The notes under the pieces: model-generated
What the model was told of the DNA's origin: nothing
Seen by the model: only the letters and a program-made list of their open reading frames with translations
Database searches by the model: none
Shown: piece by piece, positions 1-8,774 of the stretch
Position numbering within the stretch: the stretch's first letter is position 1
How the letters are laid out: each line of letters starts with the position of its first letter
Program-made: the position numbers and the translations under genes
Source: Lentisphaeria bacterium
GTDB lineage: Bacteria > Verrucomicrobiota > Lentisphaeria > Oligosphaerales > JBFJXC01
Assembly: GCA_041623325.1 (NCBI GenBank)
Contig: JBFJXC010000031.1
Span: forward strand, 1 to 19,131
DNA: 19,131 nt
Direction of reading: 5' to 3'

Positions 1-127
1 GTGGAGTGCACTGCACTGCCGCGCGGGCCGGGGGCCGGATTCGCGCAACGGGGCAATGGCGTCTATCTTTTGAATGTGGGGCCTCGCGCACCGGCGTCGC
101 AGACGCGCAGCAAAGGGAGGAATCAGT

Positions 128-472
128 ATGGGGACCGTCTACCACGAAGCCAATCTGTCGGAGCAGACCAAGGACATCCACCGCGCTCTGGCCAGCCTTC
201 AGGAGGAGCTGGAGGCCACCGACTGGTACAACCAGCGCTTGGATGTGGCCGCTGATGCTGCCTTGAAGTCCGTTCTGGAACACAACCGCAACGAGGAAAT
301 CGAGCACGCCTGCATGCTGCTGGAATGGTTGCGTCGCCGGATGCCGGTCTTCGACCGCACCTTGCGGACCTACCTCTTTACCAGCGCGCCGATTACGGCC
401 CTGGAGGAGCAGGAGCCAGGTTCCGAGGCGAAGCCGGCGCCGGGCCGTCTCCGCATCGGGAACCTTCACTAG
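128..472 (+). CDS. Encapsulin-associated ferritin-like cargo protein (EncFtn) with C-terminal targeting peptide
   Basis: ATG at 128 preceded by the RBS AAGGGAGG. The 114-aa product carries the EncFtn hallmark motifs (EELEATDWYNQRLD, EHNRNEEIEHACMLLEWLRR, LRTYLFTSAPITA), matching my recollection of Rhodospirillum rubrum EncFtn. The C-terminal tail GRLRIGNLH resembles the GSLxIGSL cargo-loading peptide. The stop lies 23 nt before the shell gene. Confidence 0.8.
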   Translation: MGTVYHEANLSEQTKDIHRALASLQEELEATDWYNQRLDVAADAALKSVLEHNRNEEIEHACMLLEWLRRRMPVFDRTLRTYLFTSAPITALEEQEPGSEAKPAPGRLRIGNLH

Positions 473-495
473 TCAACCCAAGGGAGGGCCTATCA

Positions 496-1293
496 ATGGA
501 TATATTCAAACGTTCACTGGCGCCGGTTTCGGATTCTGCTTGGGAGGCCATCGGCCAGCAGACGGCCAGGACCCTGAAGGGGTGCCTATCGGCCCGCAAA
601 CTGGTCGACTTCGACGGCCCCCGCGGCCTGGAGTTGGGGGCGGTCAACTTGGGCAGGCTCAAGCCTGGCGAGAGCGAGCCGGTTTCGGGAGTGAGCTGGG
701 GCATCCGCCAAAATCTGCCCTTGGTCGAAATTCGGATTCCGTTCGCGCTGGAGATTTGGGAGCTGGACAATATTGACCGCGGCTCTTTGACGCCCGAACT
801 GGAGGCGGTGGGGGCGGCGGCCTACCAGGCGGCGTTGTTCGAAGAGAAGGCCGTGTACAACGGGCTGGAGGAGGCCTGCATTCAGGGAATCGCCCCGCAA
901 AGCCCCCATAAAGCGCTCCCCATGGCCAAGAGTGTCGACAAGGTGGTCGCCACCCTTGAAAAGGCGATGGTGACCCTGGAGAAATCCGGGGTTGGGGGTC
1001 CGTATGCCTTGGTTTTGGGGGAGAAATACTTCAGCATGCTGATGGCCGGCGACTTGCCGGATTATCCGCTAAAAAAGCGGATCGAGGAAATGCTGCGGGG
1101 TGGGATCCACTGGAGCCCGGCGTTGGAGGGCGGTCTGTTGCTGAGCCGGCGGGGCGGGGACTTTCGCCTGACGGTGGGGCAGGACCTGGAAGTAGGCTAC
1201 GCCAGCCACGATTCCAAGCGGGTGAACCTCTACGTGACCGAATCCTTCACCTTCCAGGTGTTGGAGGCCGCGGCGGCGGTGGTCTTGACCTGA
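496..1293 (+). CDS. Family 1 encapsulin nanocompartment shell protein (HK97-fold, linocin M18-like)
   Basis: ATG at 496 with the RBS AAGGGAGG 7 nt upstream. The 265-aa product aligns closely with my recollection of the Thermotoga maritima encapsulin: MDIFKRSLAPVSDSAWEAI, LPLVEIRIPFALEIWELDNIDRG, GGPYALVLGEKYFSML, SRRGGDFRLTVGQDLEVGY, YVTESFTFQV. Confidence 0.9.
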   Translation: MDIFKRSLAPVSDSAWEAIGQQTARTLKGCLSARKLVDFDGPRGLELGAVNLGRLKPGESEPVSGVSWGIRQNLPLVEIRIPFALEIWELDNIDRGSLTPELEAVGAAAYQAALFEEKAVYNGLEEACIQGIAPQSPHKALPMAKSVDKVVATLEKAMVTLEKSGVGGPYALVLGEKYFSMLMAGDLPDYPLKKRIEEMLRGGIHWSPALEGGLLLSRRGGDFRLTVGQDLEVGYASHDSKRVNLYVTESFTFQVLEAAAAVVLT

Positions 1294-3533: not shown

Positions 3534-4425
3534 AAAACGAATGGCCAGCGCCGCGGTTCTGGGAACCATGCTGGCGGCCGCCTTCTTCATTCCCGGCCAG
3601 GTCGGTGCCGGGATCTTCATGCTGCTGTCCGCCGCCATGCTGCTGGTGGGCATTCAGGAATTCTTCCGGTTGACCAAGCCGGTCAGCGGCGGCGGCTATC
3701 CGGTTCTGACCAGCGTCTTCGGGCTGCTGATTCTGCTGTCCATGGGCACCCGGGCCTTCTTCGGCATGCCCGCGGCCGTCACCGGCTGGCACACCGCCGC
3801 TCCCGCCCTGGTCTGCTTCATCCTCTGTGTCTTCATTCACATCTTCAACCATCCCGACCGACTCCGGGAGGGCCTGGACCGGCTCTTCACCTCCCTGGCC
3901 TGCATCATCTGGGTCTGCTGGAGCCTCAGCTTCATCCCCGCCCTCTATTTCAGTTCTCCGCTCGACCAGATGGCCGGGCGGCTGCTGGTGGTGTATCTGA
4001 TTATTGTCACCAAGTCCGGCGATGTGGGCGCCTACACGGTCGGTTCGCTGACCGCCAAGCGGCCCCAGGGCAACCACAAAATGGCTCCGGCCCTCAGCCC
4101 CAAGAAAAGCTGGGAAGGTTTCGCGGGGGGCATGGCAACCTGCGTGCTGACCGCCTTGGTCCTTAACGGACTTTTCGGCCGGCATTTGACTCTGGAAGGA
4201 GTGCGGGTGGTCGGTTTCTGGGGGTCCGTTCTGGTGGGCGTGATGGCCGCGGTGCTGGGCTTTATCGGCGATGTGGCCGAATCGACTCTGAAACGGGCGG
4301 CCAAGGCCAAGGATTCCGGCTGGATTCCCGGTTTGGGGGGGGTTCTGGACGTGGTCGACAGCCTGGTCTTCGTGGCCCCGCTGTTCTACGTCTGGGTTCG
4401 CTTGGTCGCCTCCCTGCCACACTGA
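3526..4425 (+). CDS. cdsA: Phosphatidate cytidylyltransferase (CDP-diglyceride synthase)
   Basis: ATG at 3526 overlaps the uppS stop by 8 nt and has GGAGGA upstream. The product is polytopic and carries the C-terminal CdsA signature KRAAKAKDSGWIPGLGGVLDVVDS. The uppS-cdsA order is conserved in many bacteria. Confidence 0.85.
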   Translation: MLRKRMASAAVLGTMLAAAFFIPGQVGAGIFMLLSAAMLLVGIQEFFRLTKPVSGGGYPVLTSVFGLLILLSMGTRAFFGMPAAVTGWHTAAPALVCFILCVFIHIFNHPDRLREGLDRLFTSLACIIWVCWSLSFIPALYFSSPLDQMAGRLLVVYLIIVTKSGDVGAYTVGSLTAKRPQGNHKMAPALSPKKSWEGFAGGMATCVLTALVLNGLFGRHLTLEGVRVVGFWGSVLVGVMAAVLGFIGDVAESTLKRAAKAKDSGWIPGLGGVLDVVDSLVFVAPLFYVWVRLVASLPH

Positions 4426-4529
4426 GCCCGGTCCCGGGGCGATGGGGGGGCCTCGACCGTGGGGGTCAGCGCCCAGGGCTGCAGGGCTTGGCACACGGCA
4501 AGATGGTCCGCCAAGCGCCCCGCCGTCGG

Positions 4530-5393
4530 CTACTCGCTTCCCATCAGGTACATGTTTTTGACTTCCTGTTCGGTGAGGGCGCGCTTCCAGTAGGCGATCT
4601 CATCGATCCAGCCATTGAAGGTGTTGTTGCCTACGGCCGGCTTGCCGGAACGAATGCGCCCGGTGAAGGCGAAATCCGTGGTCGGCGAGTAGGGCTTTTC
4701 GCCGACTTTTACGCCGTCCACGTAGAGTCTGGCCATGCCGCCGGTCTCGAAGGTCATCACCGCCTGGTGCCACTTGCCGTCGATTAATTTCCTGGTGTCG
4801 GAGAGCGTGCCTGTCCCCGTGTGGAAATAGGCTTGGACAGCGCCGGTCGAAGTCAGATTAAGGTGAATTTCGTCCTGGCTGCCGTAGCCGTCTCCGTCGT
4901 CGTCGGCACTGCCGTAGAAAAGCATCGCCTTGGCGTCCGATTTGACGCGCAGAACTTTAAAGGAGACCATGGCGGTGCCGTTGTCGTTTTTGTATTGGTG
5001 GCTGCCATCCTTCCCCAAGGTCATGAGACTGCTGGAGGTGCCGTTGAAGTATAGGCCGGCCTTGCTGGGCCACCGTCCTTTGTACCAGGCAGTGCCCGTC
5101 CCTTTGGCGCCATGGTGCCTCTCGGGATCATAGTTCTCGATATCGACCCCAACGGCCATGTTGGTCACCCGGCCAGTCTCGCGCGAGTCTTCGAAGGTCC
5201 AGTAGCCCACGAGCAGCTCATCGATTCGCATCTGGCTACTGTATCCCAGCCAGCGGCCGTACTTGGCCCGCTGCCGGGCCGTCGAGAGCGCCGGCAGCAG
5301 CATGGAGGCCAAAATGGAGATGATGCTGATGACCACCAACAGCTCGATGAGGGTGAACGGGGCAGCGGTCGGGCGAGTTCGTTTGAGTGACAT
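4530..5393 (-). CDS. Prepilin-type N-terminal cleavage/methylation-domain protein with C-terminal LamG (concanavalin A-like) domain, paralogue 1
   Basis: ATG (CAT at 5391-5393) is preceded by GGAGGA. The N-terminus MSLKRTRPTAAPFTLIELLVVISIISILASMLLPAL is a type IV pilin-like helix. The C-terminal region has the LamG pattern KWHQAVMTFETGG...RLYVDGV. Confidence 0.8.
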   Translation of the reverse strand: MSLKRTRPTAAPFTLIELLVVISIISILASMLLPALSTARQRAKYGRWLGYSSQMRIDELLVGYWTFEDSRETGRVTNMAVGVDIENYDPERHHGAKGTGTAWYKGRWPSKAGLYFNGTSSSLMTLGKDGSHQYKNDNGTAMVSFKVLRVKSDAKAMLFYGSADDDGDGYGSQDEIHLNLTSTGAVQAYFHTGTGTLSDTRKLIDGKWHQAVMTFETGGMARLYVDGVKVGEKPYSPTTDFAFTGRIRSGKPAVGNNTFNGWIDEIAYWKRALTEQEVKNMYLMGSE

Positions 5394-5571
5394 GCATAGT
5401 CCTCCAGGTTGGATGTGTGAAAGACCCACCGAGTGTGAGGGTACCCTATGGTGGAGGGCTAGAAACTTAAAATCGTCCTAAGATTGGCAACCACCTCTGA
5501 GCGCCCGCCACTAAAGGCTGAGCCGGTTCAAGAGTGGCCCTCGCGCGCAGGTCCTGTGCATAATGCAGTGG

Positions 5572-5599
5572 ATTATACACCGGATCGCCGCCGGGGCAA
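5572..5599 (-). promoter_or_regulatory. Sigma70-like promoter of paralogue 1 (-35 TTGCCC, 16 nt spacer, -10 TATAAT on the minus strand)
   Basis: Reverse complement of 5572-5577 reads TATAAT and of 5594-5599 reads TTGCCC. Copy 2 carries the same arrangement. Confidence 0.4.
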
Positions 5600-5836
5600 G
5601 TGCGGTGAGGAACACATTGACCGGTCCAGGCAGGCAGCGAGGGTGTTTTGGGTCGTGGACAGCGCCTTCGGCTACAGAAGGCCCGGGGGGAAACGAACGG
5701 CCTTGGGCGGTCAAAGCCAGCCGCCACCGGCGAGTTCGTGTGTCTTAATACCGGATGCCTCGATCGTGGGGGTCAGCGCTCAGGGCTGCAGGGCTTGGCG
5801 CACGGCAAAATGGTCCGCCAAGCGCCCCGCCGTCGG

Positions 5837-6709
5837 CTACTCGCTTCCCATCAGGTACATGTTTTTGACTTCCTGCTCGGACAGGGCGCGATTCCAGTAG
5901 GCGGCCTCGTCGATCCAGCCCTTGAAGCGGCGGTCGTTGTTGCCGGCCCTCCCGAGATAAATGCCACCGGTGAAAGCGAAATCGCCGGCCTTCTTGACGT
6001 AGTCCTTTTCGGCCACTTTGACGCCGTCGACATAGAGTCTGGCCTTGCCGCCGGTCTCGTAGGTCATGACGGCCTGGTGCCACTTGCCATCGACCAGGTT
6101 CCGGCTGTCGGAGAGCCTGCCTGAGCTCCCGTCCCCGAGGTGGAAATAGGCTTGGGCCGCACCGTTGTCCTGGAGATGCAGGTGCATTTCGCGTTCCGCG
6201 CTGCCCAATCCGTCTCCGACATCCTTACAGCCGTAGAAGAGCATGTAACGGTCAGAGGGCTTGTTTAAGGCTTTGAAGGAGACCATGGCCGTGCCGTTGT
6301 CGCTCTTGTACTGGTGGCGGCCCTTGGTGGCCAACGACACATTGCTGTTGCTGTAGCCGGGGAAATAGACGGCGGCCTTGCTGGGCCATCGCCCCTTGTA
6401 CCAGGCCGCGCCGGCGCCTTTGCTGCCATGGTGCCGTTCGGGATCGTAGTTTTCCACATCCACACCAGCGGCCATGTTGGTTACTTGGTCAGTTTCGCGC
6501 GCGTCTTCGAAGTGCCAGTAGCCCACGAGCAGCTCATCGATTCGCATCTGGCTACTGTATCCAAGCCAGCGGCCGTACTTGGCCCTTTGCCGAGCCGTCG
6601 CCAGCGCCGGAAGTAGCATGGAGGCCAAAATCGAGATGATGCTGATGACCACCAGCAGCTCGATGAGGGTGAACGGGGCAACGGTCCGGCGAGATCGCGT
6701 GATTGACAT
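5837..6709 (-). CDS. Prepilin-type N-terminal helix plus LamG-domain protein, paralogue 2
   Basis: ATG (CAT at 6707-6709) with the RBS GGAGGAT. The product begins MSITRSRRTVAPFTLIELLVVISIISILASMLLPAL and carries the LamG motif KWHQAVMTYETGGKARLYVDGV. The first 60 aa and the last 15 aa are near-identical to paralogue 1. Confidence 0.8.
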   Translation of the reverse strand: MSITRSRRTVAPFTLIELLVVISIISILASMLLPALATARQRAKYGRWLGYSSQMRIDELLVGYWHFEDARETDQVTNMAAGVDVENYDPERHHGSKGAGAAWYKGRWPSKAAVYFPGYSNSNVSLATKGRHQYKSDNGTAMVSFKALNKPSDRYMLFYGCKDVGDGLGSAEREMHLHLQDNGAAQAYFHLGDGSSGRLSDSRNLVDGKWHQAVMTYETGGKARLYVDGVKVAEKDYVKKAGDFAFTGGIYLGRAGNNDRRFKGWIDEAAYWNRALSEQEVKNMYLMGSE

Positions 6710-6889
6710 GTCTTATCCTCCAGTTCGGATGCGTGATAGACCCACCGAGTGTTAACGTCCACCCTGTGATGGGGCTGGAAACTTAAGATCGTCCTAGGAC
6801 TGGCCTTCAACCTGCTGAACGCCCGCCACTAAAGGCTGAGCCGGTTCAAGAGCGGCCCTCGCGCGCAGGTCTGGTGCATAATGCAGTGG

Positions 6890-6918
6890 ATTATACACCG
6901 GATCGCGGCAAGAGGCAA
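6890..6918 (-). promoter_or_regulatory. Sigma70-like promoter of paralogue 2 (-35 TTGCCT, 17 nt spacer, -10 TATAAT on the minus strand)
   Basis: Reverse complement of 6890-6895 reads TATAAT and of 6913-6918 reads TTGCCT. Confidence 0.4.
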
Positions 6919-7047
6919 GTAGAATCGTAGCCATTAGTCGACTTTAGGCAGTCAGCGGGGGTGTGCCGGGTGAATGGGGCATGGCCTTGGGAAAAGGCTT
7001 GGGGCGGCCGGTCTCTGGCCAAGGGCCATTCCGGGCGGGAAGCCAGA

Positions 7048-7950
7048 TTAGAGGGCTTGGGGCCGCCCGGTAGTAAAGGTCTGGCGCAAGTGCTTGCCGA
7101 CCAGCAGCAGGTAGCCGACGAAGCTGAAGACGAACAGGGTGGCCATGTTCAGGTAGGGAAGGTGGAGGCTGCCATAGATCGCGGCGACGATCAACGGGGG
7201 AATGCTGGCGTAGAGGTAGAAAGTCAGCATGCGCGTGAAGCCGGCGGCCGCGAGAGGGCTGCGCAGGACAAAGGGTATGAGGGTGAAGAGCAGCACGTAC
7301 AACACGATCTTGAAGAACATTTCCAAGGCCCCTTGCAGGGCCAAGACCGGGGCGGCCTGCAACATCAGCCGCCGCGTCTCCTGACTAAACTCCTCTCCCC
7401 TCAGGGAAAAACCGTCTGGACGCATCTGGGCCAGCTCGAAACGGTCGAGAAGCTTGCCATCCTTGAGCAGAATGATGGGTCTGGGCGGTTTGCCTTCGAG
7501 GCGCTCCCAGAAGAAGACCTCGGATGGGGTCAGCCATAGTCCCTGCTGCTCGGGGCCGGCAAAGGGCTCGGCAGGAAACGAACTGCCCTCGGCAGCGAAA
7601 TCCACGCGCCAGCCGCGATGGCGGGTTGTGTAGGGCAGGGCCTGGGGGCGTTCCCAGTGCAACTTGCCTTGGCGCCATTCCACCCGGACCAGCTCCCGGC
7701 TCATCCAGCGGCCCCAGTCATCGGCCGCCTTCAGCAGGGTGGGCAGCCGGGCCAGACTGACCAGAGCCCCGCACAGAAGACACAGCAGGGTGACCCGGCG
7801 AAAGGCCCGCCGCCAGGAGTCCGCTTGCAGCACGACCAGGACGGCAGGGTGGAAAAAGAGCCCGTAGAGCAGGTGGTGAAAGGGCACCGCCGTGGAAATA
7901 GCCCGCGGCTTGCGTTGGCGGGGGTCGGGGATGGGAGGCGGGGTCGGCAT
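7048..7950 (-). CDS. Hypothetical multi-pass membrane protein, translationally coupled to def
   Basis: A 300-aa ORF whose ATG (CAT at 7948-7950) lies 7 nt after the def stop. It has several hydrophobic segments (LLYGLFFHPAVLVVL, LLCLLCGALVSLA, IVLYVLLFTLIPFVL, LYASIPPLIVAAIYG, LFVFSFVGYLLLV). I recognise no known family. Confidence 0.55.
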   Translation of the reverse strand: MPTPPPIPDPRQRKPRAISTAVPFHHLLYGLFFHPAVLVVLQADSWRRAFRRVTLLCLLCGALVSLARLPTLLKAADDWGRWMSRELVRVEWRQGKLHWERPQALPYTTRHRGWRVDFAAEGSSFPAEPFAGPEQQGLWLTPSEVFFWERLEGKPPRPIILLKDGKLLDRFELAQMRPDGFSLRGEEFSQETRRLMLQAAPVLALQGALEMFFKIVLYVLLFTLIPFVLRSPLAAAGFTRMLTFYLYASIPPLIVAAIYGSLHLPYLNMATLFVFSFVGYLLLVGKHLRQTFTTGRPQAL

Positions 7951-7957
7951 GTCGCGC

Positions 7958-8572
7958 TCAGCCCCGGTTTTTTCGGCTTTTGAGCGTCCGCCGTTCGATC
8001 GCCTCCAACTGGTCCAGCACCTCGGCCTTGTCGGCAGGGCTCAGATGGTCCACGAACAGCACCCCGTTCAGGTGGTCGATCTCGTGCTGCAGACAGCGGG
8101 CCAACAACCCTCCGCACGCGGTCTCAATCATCTGTCCGTTCAGCAACTGGGCGCGAAGCACAATCGAAACCGGTCGGATCACGTCGCCGTTAAGCTCAGG
8201 GATGCTCAGGCAGCCTTCGCAGAACGAACTGACCTGTTTGGATGCCGATACAATCTCCGGATTGACCAGGGCCAGAGGCATTTGCGGCGCCAGCAGGCGC
8301 TCCCCAGGCAGGGCTGTGGGGGACAACTCCTCGTCTTCGGTGTGGGTCATCAGGGTGATGAGCCGGATGTTGCGTCCGACCTGAGGGGCGGCCAGGCCGA
8401 TGCCATTGTTCTTGAACATCGCCTCGATCATCTGTTCGGCGAAATCGCGAATCTGGCCGGTTATCTGCCCGACCGGTTCGGAGGTTGTGCGCAACACCTC
8501 GGAGCCATAGTGCTCGATTGGCAGTACCCGGCGCTTTTTGAAAAAGGGGCTGTTCAAAAGACTCGTTTCCAT
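7958..8572 (-). CDS. def: Peptide deformylase
   Basis: All three PDF motifs are present: GIGLAAPQVG, EGCLSIP and HEIDHLNG. The start was chosen at METSLL (CAT at 8570-8572). An upstream in-frame ATG at 8662 lacks an RBS. A roughly 17-aa insertion sits between motifs 1 and 2. Confidence 0.8.
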   Translation of the reverse strand: METSLLNSPFFKKRRVLPIEHYGSEVLRTTSEPVGQITGQIRDFAEQMIEAMFKNNGIGLAAPQVGRNIRLITLMTHTEDEELSPTALPGERLLAPQMPLALVNPEIVSASKQVSSFCEGCLSIPELNGDVIRPVSIVLRAQLLNGQMIETACGGLLARCLQHEIDHLNGVLFVDHLSPADKAEVLDQLEAIERRTLKSRKNRG

Positions 8573-8774
8573 TGGATTGATGCTGGCGGCTTTTCCAGCT
8601 ACCACTTTAGCACGCGGCAAGCACAACTCAACCCGCGGCGGGCCTTCCAAGACACAGGCCATCGGCGGGTCGTTCTCTAGCCTGACCGGCGTTTTGGGCG
8701 GATCCGACAGGCCGAAATCGCGAAAAGACGGGCTATCTTGGGGTTCACCCCCCCCCAATAGTCAGGACGGCAGA

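Follow-up and report, generated by a model that had tools for sequence, protein, structure and literature searches.

Modular pilins that carry PF13385 or lectin modules have already been described (PMC8179133, PMC9934059), and one lectin-module pilin, PilC of S. sanguinis, has been characterised (PMC9934059). In PilC and the wider IPR012902+PF13385 class (Raynaud et al. 2021, PMC8179133; Shahin et al. 2023, PMC9934059), a ConA-like/LamG beta-sandwich comes after a helix with Phe at +1 and Glu at +5. Within the PVC group, the N_methyl+SBP_bac_10/DUF1559 proteins of Planctomycetes have an FTLIELLVVI-type N-terminus, and their genes are dispersed away from secretion/pilus machinery (PMC8567305). 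Among bacterial paralogues subject to gene conversion (survey PMC6053082; M. tuberculosis repeat families PMC12046097, PMC13061034), near-identity at synonymous and non-coding sites is found beside diverged stretches. Here we describe a tandem pair of genes for modular pilin-like proteins, A and B, from an uncultured bacterium of the PVC group, in a window of 19,131 nt, the whole stretch of DNA that was analysed. We favor a model, with a probability of about 0.55, in which an old tandem duplication has been partly homogenised by gene conversion, together with purifying selection on the promoter motifs and the helix.

The pair occupies the minus strand as two head-to-tail units, each composed of a promoter-like site, a leader of about 175 nt, a coding sequence and an 80-nt GC-rich 3′ flank (Table 1). 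The tandem duplication proposed in the original prediction is borne out by direct-repeat families with a period of 1307-1318 nt and by alignment of the two units, with detectable homology from 6912 to 5757 in unit A and from 5594 to 4450 in unit B, about 1.15 kb in each. Both gene copies are complete, and their surroundings are unique: cdsA lies on one side of the pair and the membrane-protein/def genes on the other, on a contig that also encodes encapsulin, purA, uppS, lnt, folD, fhs and pdxST. Gene A has GGAGGA 7 nt before its ATG. We assign the start of gene B to the ATG at 5393, which has the same SD-like GGAGGA 6 nt upstream and agrees with a 287-aa database protein (P0002), and on these two grounds rejected the GTG at 5429 given in the list of open reading frames. 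Promoter-like sites with 10/12 consensus matches occur twice, at equivalent positions in the two units, compared with 0.5 expected in shuffles, and could serve as promoters, with predicted transcription start sites near 6882 and 5564; the hairpins of the 3′ flanks are likewise putative terminators.

Table 1. Features of the duplicated locus, in positions of the window.
Feature	Position	Strand	Evidence or remark
Repeat unit A (promoter, 5′ leader, CDS A, 3′ flank)	5757..6918	-	direct-repeat families D1-D4; global alignment to unit B
Repeat unit B (promoter, 5′ leader, CDS B, 3′ flank)	4450..5599	-	direct repeats; global alignment to unit A
Stretch upstream of unit A with decayed homology to 5628-5688	6946..7004	-	local alignment; core with 17/19 positions conserved, ~65 nt before the -10
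Predicted sigma-70-like promoter of gene A, TTGCCT-17-TATAAT	6890..6918	-	consensus scan
Predicted 5′ leader of gene A	6710..6889	-	alignment; 6806-6889 highly conserved, 6750-6805 diverged, SD-proximal 6710-6749 conserved
CDS A, 290 aa	5837..6709	-	TIGR02532 and PF13385 matches; AF2 model; Foldseek and PDB profile matches
High-identity tract 2, codons ~4-70 (partner ~5184-5384)	6500..6700	-	alignment; 48-nt perfect run 6562-6515
High-identity tract 3, last ~25 codons and 3′ flank (partner 4450-4605)	5757..5912	-	alignment; contains 66-nt perfect run 5875-5810
3′ flank of gene A	5757..5836	-	95% identical to 4450-4529; two GC-rich hairpins from 6 nt past the stop codon, no U-tract; consensus fold
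Spacer between units, without high-identity counterpart	5600..5756	-	alignment; holds terminator-like hairpin 5719-5698 and decayed homology 5688-5628
Predicted sigma-70-like promoter of gene B, TTGCCC-16-TATAAT	5572..5599	-	consensus scan
Predicted 5′ leader of gene B	5394..5571	-	alignment to leader A
CDS B, 287 aa, paralogue of A	4530..5393	-	profile matches; database protein P0002
3′ flank of gene B	4450..4529	-	takes up most of the 104 nt that separate gene B from convergent cdsA (end at 4425)

Protein A consists of a pilin-type N-terminal helix (residues 13-55) that leads straight into a LamG/ConA-like jelly-roll (about 60-290), an architecture foreseen from the sequence and supported here by profile matches, a structure model and fold comparisons. 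A TIGR02532 match scores 21.5 bits (cut-off 16.3), PF07963 reaches 20.1 bits (cut-off 21.2), and PF13385 (LamG) scores 76.6 and 70.8 bits in the two proteins against a cut-off of 27.6. The AF2 model (pLDDT 84) has a helix at 15-55 and a LamG sandwich from residue 61, directly after the helix and with no globular pilin head. Foldseek matches include clostridial neurotoxin Hc-N, a trans-sialidase lectin domain and arabinanase domain 4, with E values of 1e-10 to 1e-12. Profile searches of the PDB matched the N-terminal part to the N-termini of PilA, geopilin and PpdD and the LamG part to 4qvs, AbnA, neurexin LNS and pentraxins, with domain 4 of AbnA aligning to query residues 60-277. An NCBIfam match to TafC, a haloarchaeal Tat-fimbria subunit, was set aside as weak LamG similarity only (25.9 bits, cut-off 410). 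The LamG domain would bind a ligand, probably a carbohydrate, and the proteins may be displayed either in the inner membrane or as part of a type IV filament.

Prepilin peptidase requires Gly at -1. The leader peptides MSITRSRRTVAP and MSLKRTRPTAAP are short and positively charged (12 residues, 3 of them basic, in each), and FTLIELLVVISIISILASMLLPAL provides Phe at +1, Glu at +5 and a hydrophobic helix, with F13 and E17 invariant in alignment A1. The -1 residue, however, is Pro in both proteins (A-P/F-T-L-I-E), so that their class III signal is atypical; Gly holds this position in only 12 of 36 aligned family members. Pro in place of Gly at -1 also sets A and B apart from the modular lectin pilins, as do the lack of a pilin head or Ig-like module between helix and lectin domain, their much smaller size (290 aa, against 52.8 kDa for processed S. 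sanguinis PilC) and their location among housekeeping genes rather than in a pil locus; no prepilin peptidase, ATPase, platform protein or secretin is encoded on the 19-kb contig. With the N_methyl proteins of Planctomycetes the pair has in common the N-terminus, the PVC lineage and the dispersal of genes away from such machinery, and it differs in its C-terminal domain, LamG instead of SBP_bac_10 (PMC8567305).

Relatives of the two proteins are distant. Among 5.8 billion proteins we found no orthologue or outgroup of A or B, the next relative being 38% identical. Those with an organism name are a Lentisphaeria MAG protein of the same architecture and two Verrucomicrobia MAG proteins, more distant pilin-type matches that do not have LamG; the PurA of the window is closest to that of Victivallaceae, Kiritimatiellia and Verrucomicrobia MAGs. 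In PurA-anchored loci of PVC MAGs the order purA-uppS-cdsA is kept with no LamG-pilin gene within 10 kb, and on contigs carrying relatives of the adjacent membrane protein (at most 46% identity) def followed by the membrane protein is kept and the LamG-pilin gene is absent. In another locus (L090) a LamG member is followed downstream by one other gene and then by a DUF1559-like member.

Divergence between A and B is uneven. Overall identity is 74% in protein and 79% in nucleotides over the unit, above the roughly 70% first estimated. Identity reaches 89-97% in the leader between the -10 element and +95, in codons 10-75, and in the final 25 codons with the 3′ flank, compared with 50-70% in the leader middle, the centre of the gene and promoter-distal DNA. 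The 5′ leader had been described as nearly identical over about 170 nt; this is true of the 92 nt from the -10 element (95.7%), but identity drops to about 70% in the middle 56 nt, a block that carries indels, and recovers to 80-89% in the last 40 nt before the start codon. The 3′ flanks differ at 4 of 80 nt, one more than the approximate count made before. Outside these limits identity is low, 42% in the 80 nt beyond the 3′ flank and 49% upstream of the -10 element. The 66-nt perfect run covers the last 13 codons, crosses the stop codon and ends 24 nt beyond it; when the mismatch positions were shuffled 10,000 times, the longest run averaged 25 nt and never exceeded 60.

Silent sites follow the same profile. 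Nei-Gojobori dS is 0.22 at the N-terminus, 0.74 in the middle and 0.18 at the C-terminus, and among codons for identical amino acids synonymous differences number 11/72 (15%) at the ends and 42/122 (34%) in the middle (Fisher p=0.004). The excess of identity at the ends over a diverged centre thus holds at silent and non-coding sites, and the profile, dS and the synonymous counts together exclude uniform divergence. The suggestion that a surface-exposed lectin-like domain is diversifying finds no evidence here: central dN/dS is about 0.35, the single 30-codon block with dN>dS is not significant, and differences between A and B are not significantly enriched in loops (61% identity in loops versus 71% in strands, p=0.15).

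The original prediction offered gene conversion or selection as the cause of this pattern, and both find some support: the long perfect runs, the low synonymous divergence and the absence of the pattern in a control pair speak for conversion, and short promoter footprints in decayed upstream DNA for selection. If there had been no conversion, purifying selection on functional nucleotides would have to keep the ends identical through the promoter, a 5′ UTR with a regulatory role (RNA structure, binding site of a protein or sRNA, or uORF), mRNA constraint on the first ~70 codons, and terminator or stabiliser hairpins. At least three tracts that match functional elements (promoter/5′ UTR, SD and helix, terminator-like hairpins) are also expected under selection, and the conserved blocks do overlap such predicted elements. 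Although the DNA around them has decayed, a 17/19 motif at -65, a -35 TTGCC and a perfect TATAAT remain, and these short motifs are better explained by selection. On the 5′ side, moreover, identity falls off gradually, not abruptly, which counts against conversion. A 16-codon, near-leaderless uORF is likewise intact in both leaders, with one synonymous change and one replacement codon, and all four substitutions located in predicted stems of the two sequences compared keep pairing, which weakly favours a functional RNA structure. The leader consensus fold, drawn from two sequences only, has 0 compensatory pairs and 2 one-sided changes that keep pairing.

Several observations are nonetheless difficult to reconcile with selection as the sole cause, and we regard it as unlikely. 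Synonymous sites have been homogenised as well, the 66-nt perfect run crosses coding, stop-codon and non-coding sequence with loops included, and the entire 80-nt flank is conserved rather than its stems alone. Folding energies are no better than those of shuffles, with z-scores of +0.36 for leader A, +0.19 for leader B and about 0 for the flanks (all four between -0.1 and +0.6), and Rfam gives no match in the whole window at the gathering threshold. Two chance-level matches to the snoRNA sR32 (E>1, opposite strand), returned when 4300-7100 was scanned at E<=5, were discarded. Nor do the leader and flank recur in the sequences covered: there are no further copies in the 19-kb window, only chance-level matches in 1.4 Mb of fetched loci (blastn, nhmmer), and no similarity in the DNA up- and downstream of distant homologues (L001-L003). 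Exact-word scans of two large collections in which the source genome is absent returned 0 matches, for a leader 22-mer in genome_contigs and metagenome_contigs and for a second 24-mer in metagenome_contigs.

Evidence against a constraint common to the family comes from an independent tandem pair of LamG-pilin genes in an unrelated metagenome (L089), which served as a control. The two proteins of this pair are 70% identical to each other. Their synonymous difference fractions are 0.47/0.42/0.28, with no distinction between ends and middle (p=1.0), and their flanks are unalignable. Since this pair shows neither effect, the homogenised ends of A and B do not reflect a family-wide constraint on N-terminal codons or flanks.

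Whether the near-identical ends or the diverged centre record the true age of the duplication is a separate question. Upstream of the promoters, 7004-6946 and 5688-5628 align with a local score of 17 (shuffle mean 9.4, P~0.001), and this weak homology implies an ancestral unit of about 1.25-1.3 kb and a true tandem duplication. Sites that appear unconstrained (promoter-distal DNA, the leader middle, central synonymous sites) are only ~50-70% identical, which indicates that the duplication is old, and the residual upstream homology together with the diverged leader middle makes the high-identity tracts islands within it. The opposite reading, in which the duplication is recent, the ends give its true age, and one centre was replaced by a diverged allele or imported paralogue or else diverged very fast, draws on the sharp step in identity on the 3′ side, from ~62% to 92% near 5915, on the sharp outer boundaries of the repeat and on the multi-copy state of the LamG-pilin family in related organisms, which could supply donors. 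We consider a recent origin improbable, because the decayed but significant upstream homology and the indel-bearing leader block argue that the whole unit is old, and no candidate donor among the 5.8 billion proteins exceeds 38% identity to A or B. Rapid change in the protein would not by itself increase divergence at synonymous sites, and the central dN/dS given above does not fit it either.

An error of assembly, with strain variants or collapsed repeats joined in tandem, would make the duplication itself spurious. The window is a complete 19,131-bp contig of a metagenome-assembled genome, and nothing else speaks for such an error, which we think highly improbable. The two complete copies have unique flanks and differ by 21% over the unit, and the family also has a tandem pair in a metagenome unrelated to this one. 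Metagenome assemblers usually use k-mers longer than 66 nt, the length of the longest identical run.

We therefore return to an old duplication with partial gene conversion. We envision a scenario in which duplication produced two self-contained tandem expression units, each encoding a modular pilin-like protein, and later non-reciprocal homologous recombination between the neighbours (intrachromosomal gene conversion) would have made three tracts alike again: the leader between the -10 element and +95, the SD region with the first ~70 codons, and the final ~25 codons with the 80-nt 3′ flank. The helix and the short promoter motifs would in addition be under purifying selection, which adds to the pattern, and the centre may have escaped conversion, or converted variants may have been selected against. 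The outcome would be shared regulation and a shared membrane- or filament-anchoring module, with ligand-binding domains that differ by ~35%. The tandem arrangement favours recombination, as in known gene-conversion paralogues (PMC6053082); A and B differ from these in that only parts of the unit are homogenised and in that the comparison rests on two sequences. Since the databases hold no orthologues, we infer conversion here rather than prove it.

Antigenic variation through pilE and pilS of Neisseria also involves pilin-family genes in which the middle varies between conserved ends. By analogy, the identical flanks of A and B could guide recombination. Unlike the Neisseria system, the locus has only two copies and gives no evidence of directional or programmed transfer. 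Each copy is complete, with a promoter-like site, SD, ATG and full ORF, so neither is a silent cassette, and the window contains no promoter-less or 5′-truncated donor copies. We nevertheless raise, as a long shot, the idea that the near-identical ends are not passive and constitute either an undescribed cis-regulatory leader (-10 to +95, with uORF and hairpin) that co-controls pilin-like lectin genes in this lineage or recombination handles for swapping lectin cores. If they were handles, the locus would let a PVC bacterium vary a surface glycan-binding protein by means of two cassettes.

The pattern that we describe is real, but paralogues commonly evolve in this way, and it leaves current understanding unchanged. 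One caution follows from it, that such paralogues are phylogenetically uninformative at their ends. If our reading is right, the locus is a small, clean example of segmental concerted evolution, in which a regulatory and anchoring module is shared while the ligand-binding domains drift. It also provides a minimal modular pilin from a barely sampled PVC lineage, a helix joined to a LamG domain only, lacking the pilin head and carrying Pro at -1, a form that raises the question of whether prepilin peptidase processes it or the helix serves simply as a membrane anchor. Its value lies in offering a candidate for glycan-binding and processing experiments.

The tandem minus-strand pair between 4450 and 6918 comprises two head-to-tail units, A and B, each with its own promoter, leader, coding sequence and 3' flank. 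Repeat finding resolved 4450-6909 into four co-linear families of direct repeats, whose period is 1307-1318 nt, and no third copy of the unit, leader or flank was found within the window. The predicted sigma-70-like promoters occupy equal relative positions in both units (2 sites versus 0.5 expected in shuffled sequence), and each predicted leader, of about 175 nt, ends in GGAGGA, 6-7 nt 5' of the ATG. A GTG at 5429 was ruled out as the CDS B start; the ATG at 5393 is homologous, SD-preceded and in agreement with the database protein P0002, which equals the CDS B product. The spacer hairpin, with a partial T-run, sits some 40 nt beyond gene A's conserved 3' flank in the direction of transcription; nothing equivalent follows gene B, which instead adjoins the convergent cdsA. 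Both leaders also contain a uORF of 16 codons, at 6829-6879 and 5511-5561 on the minus strand (MHQTCARGPLLNRLSL and MHRTCARGPLLNRLSL, each followed by a stop); one synonymous and one replacement codon change separate its two copies. It starts 11 nt past the -10 hexamer in both leaders, has no SD, and would be near-leaderless provided the predicted transcription start is right.

Features of the tandem pair
Feature	Position	Strand	Details
Unit A homology	6912 to 5757	minus	global alignment of both units
Unit B homology	5594 to 4450	minus	global alignment of both units
Unit A sigma-70-like promoter match	6918-6890	minus	predicted; TTGCCT-17-TATAAT
Unit B sigma-70-like promoter match	5599-5572	minus	predicted; TTGCCC-16-TATAAT
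CDS A	5837-6709	minus	290 aa
CDS B	4530-5393	minus	287 aa
3' flank of each unit			80 nt, GC-rich; two hairpins can form, without U-tract
Spacer between units	about 5600-5756		contains terminator-like hairpin at 5719-5698

In 60-nt windows, identity between the units is 0.95 directly past the -10 element, about 0.72 in the leader middle and 0.88-0.95 across codons 10-70; it is 0.55-0.70 over much of the gene center, with one island of 0.83-0.90 at 6121-6002, and 0.88-0.97 from 5911 to the repeat end. Non-coding identity is 49% upstream of the -10 element, 89% from -10 to +95 (95.7% over the best 92 nt), 70% in the leader middle, 80% in the final 40 nt of the leader, 95% in the 3' flank and 42% in the 80 nt that follow. 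The longest perfect run, 66 nt at 5875-5810, spans the last 13 codons, the stop and 24 nt of non-coding sequence (26 counting the stop codon's last two bases); in 10,000 shuffles of mismatch positions the longest run averaged 25 nt and reached at most 60. Nei-Gojobori dS is 0.22 for codons 1-68, 0.74 for codons 69-270 and 0.18 from codon 271 to the end, with dN of 0.05, 0.26 and 0.08, respectively. Because multiply hit codons can inflate dS where sequences have diverged, we also compared codons for the same amino acid: 11 of 72 differ at the ends and 42 of 122 in the middle (Fisher p=0.004). The run-length, dS and codon tests bear out, with corrected numbers, the original prediction of duplicated units with near-identical ends and a diverged LamG middle. 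The contrast is real. An assembly artefact is scarcely credible.

Homology persists upstream of the promoters, where 7004-6946 ahead of unit A aligns on the minus strand with the spacer at 5688-5628 before unit B (local score 17, P~0.001; shuffled sequences averaged 9.4). Within this decayed homology, 17 of 19 positions are conserved in a core, ACACCCYCGCTGVCTGCCT, that lies about 65 nt ahead of each -10 element and may be a regulator-binding site. The residual homology points to an ancestral unit of about 1.25-1.3 kb and so to a genuine tandem duplication. Inside that unit, unconstrained sequence is now 50-70% identical, and the 89-97% tracts are islands within an old duplication, not remains of a recent one. 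It is accordingly quite improbable that the duplication is recent and that its center was imported or evolved fast, a reading that would take the near-identical ends as such remains.

The short conserved -65, -35 and -10 motifs, set in decayed DNA, look like ordinary selective footprints. As a negative control we took a separate tandem pair from this family (P0023 and P0018, 70% amino acid identity), likewise head-to-tail, at 839-2831 of L089, a contig of the unrelated JGI metagenome 3300001419. Its nucleotide identity is fairly even and its flanks are unalignable; the same-amino-acid codon test gave 0.47 at the N-terminus, 0.42 in the middle and 0.28 at the C-terminus (ends versus middle, p=1.0). 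On this evidence the family lacks a general constraint on helix-coding synonymous sites or flanking DNA, and we consider selection alone, without conversion, unlikely. Low synonymous divergence specific to this lineage, and long perfect runs that continue across the coding/non-coding border, make conversion the simplest explanation. We favor gene conversion between the adjacent copies combined with selection (probability roughly 0.55), whereby tracts at the ends of A and B would have been homogenized by conversion. The original interpretation is supported in part. Its most interesting extensions, a leader element of a new type or a system that swaps cassettes, are so far unsupported and of low probability. 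Rfam gave no match for leader or flank, neither folded better than shuffled sequence, and the two sequences yielded no covariation. All four substitutions within predicted stems (4/4) retain pairing through wobble changes. This evidence is weak, since these two sequences also served to fit the structure.

The closest protein outside the pair, among 5.8 billion sequences, is 38% identical. LamG-pilin genes are missing from the corresponding loci of distant relatives that keep the order def then membrane-protein gene, and of PVC MAGs that keep purA-uppS-cdsA. The cassette at this site is therefore lineage-specific, and no outgroup is available. The window PurA is nearest to Victivallaceae (61% and 57%), with Kiritimatiellia and Verrucomicrobia MAGs at 56%, which indicates a poorly sampled PVC lineage. 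The peptide deformylase (def) ORF at 7958-8758 (minus) encodes 266 aa from a TTG; its Pfam domain starts at residue 79 and homologous def genes in three other loci (L005, L006 and L008) are shorter, at 189-211 aa, which makes a start codon further downstream probable. Adjoining it at 7048-7950 (minus) is a membrane protein gene with a weak, sub-threshold DUF1189 match; synteny of the two is retained in relatives at 36-46% identity. At the start of the contig, which the window covers in full (19,131 bp), genes for an EncFtn-like protein and then an encapsulin (Linocin_M18) at 74-1293 (plus) make up an iron-storage nanocompartment pair.

Both proteins match Laminin_G_3 strongly; NCBIfam TIGR02532 (prepilin-type N-terminal domain) scores above cut-off and Pfam N_methyl just under. 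An AlphaFold2 model built from a family alignment of 36 sequences (pLDDT 84, pTM 0.81) has a single helix at 15-55 and a beta-sandwich from 61 to the C-terminus, with a short helix at the end; it contains no pilin head domain. Foldseek matched it to the clostridial neurotoxin lectin-like Hc-N jelly-roll, a trans-sialidase lectin domain and arabinanase domain 4. In a profile search of PDB sequences, residues 5-55 matched PilA, geopilin and PpdD. The part at about 60-277 matched an S-layer-domain protein, AbnA domain 4, neurexin LNS domains and pentraxins. Across the 36 members F13 and E17 are invariant and a GRW(L)G motif is conserved past the helix. The canonical residue before the prepilin cleavage site is Gly. 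Residue 12, just before the predicted site (-1), is Pro in CDS A (about 6674-6676) and CDS B (about 5358-5360), and Gly occurs there in only 12/36 members, which makes processing by prepilin peptidase uncertain in this subfamily; the modeled helix may be a simple membrane anchor. Distant LamG-pilin homologues adjoin a sulfatase and a sugar ABC-transporter operon (L003, 1-7741); in L090 (4456-8996) one precedes genes for a Tat-signal protein, a DUF1559-like N_methyl protein and a TRAP DctM transporter. These neighbors hint at a link with carbohydrate or substrate capture or uptake.

So-called modular pilins, which carry an additional functional module, are widespread, with N_methyl+PF13385 within the 15 commonest architectures (PMC8179133); the ConA-like lectin module of S. 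sanguinis PilC binds host glycans (PMC9934059), and Planctomycetes carry large, dispersed families of N_methyl proteins (PMC8567305). Compared with modular pilins, the proteins described here are a small variant, with helix and LamG only, Pro at -1 and a housekeeping neighborhood. That bacterial paralogues undergo gene conversion is well documented (PMC6053082), and the pair would be evolving in that known manner.
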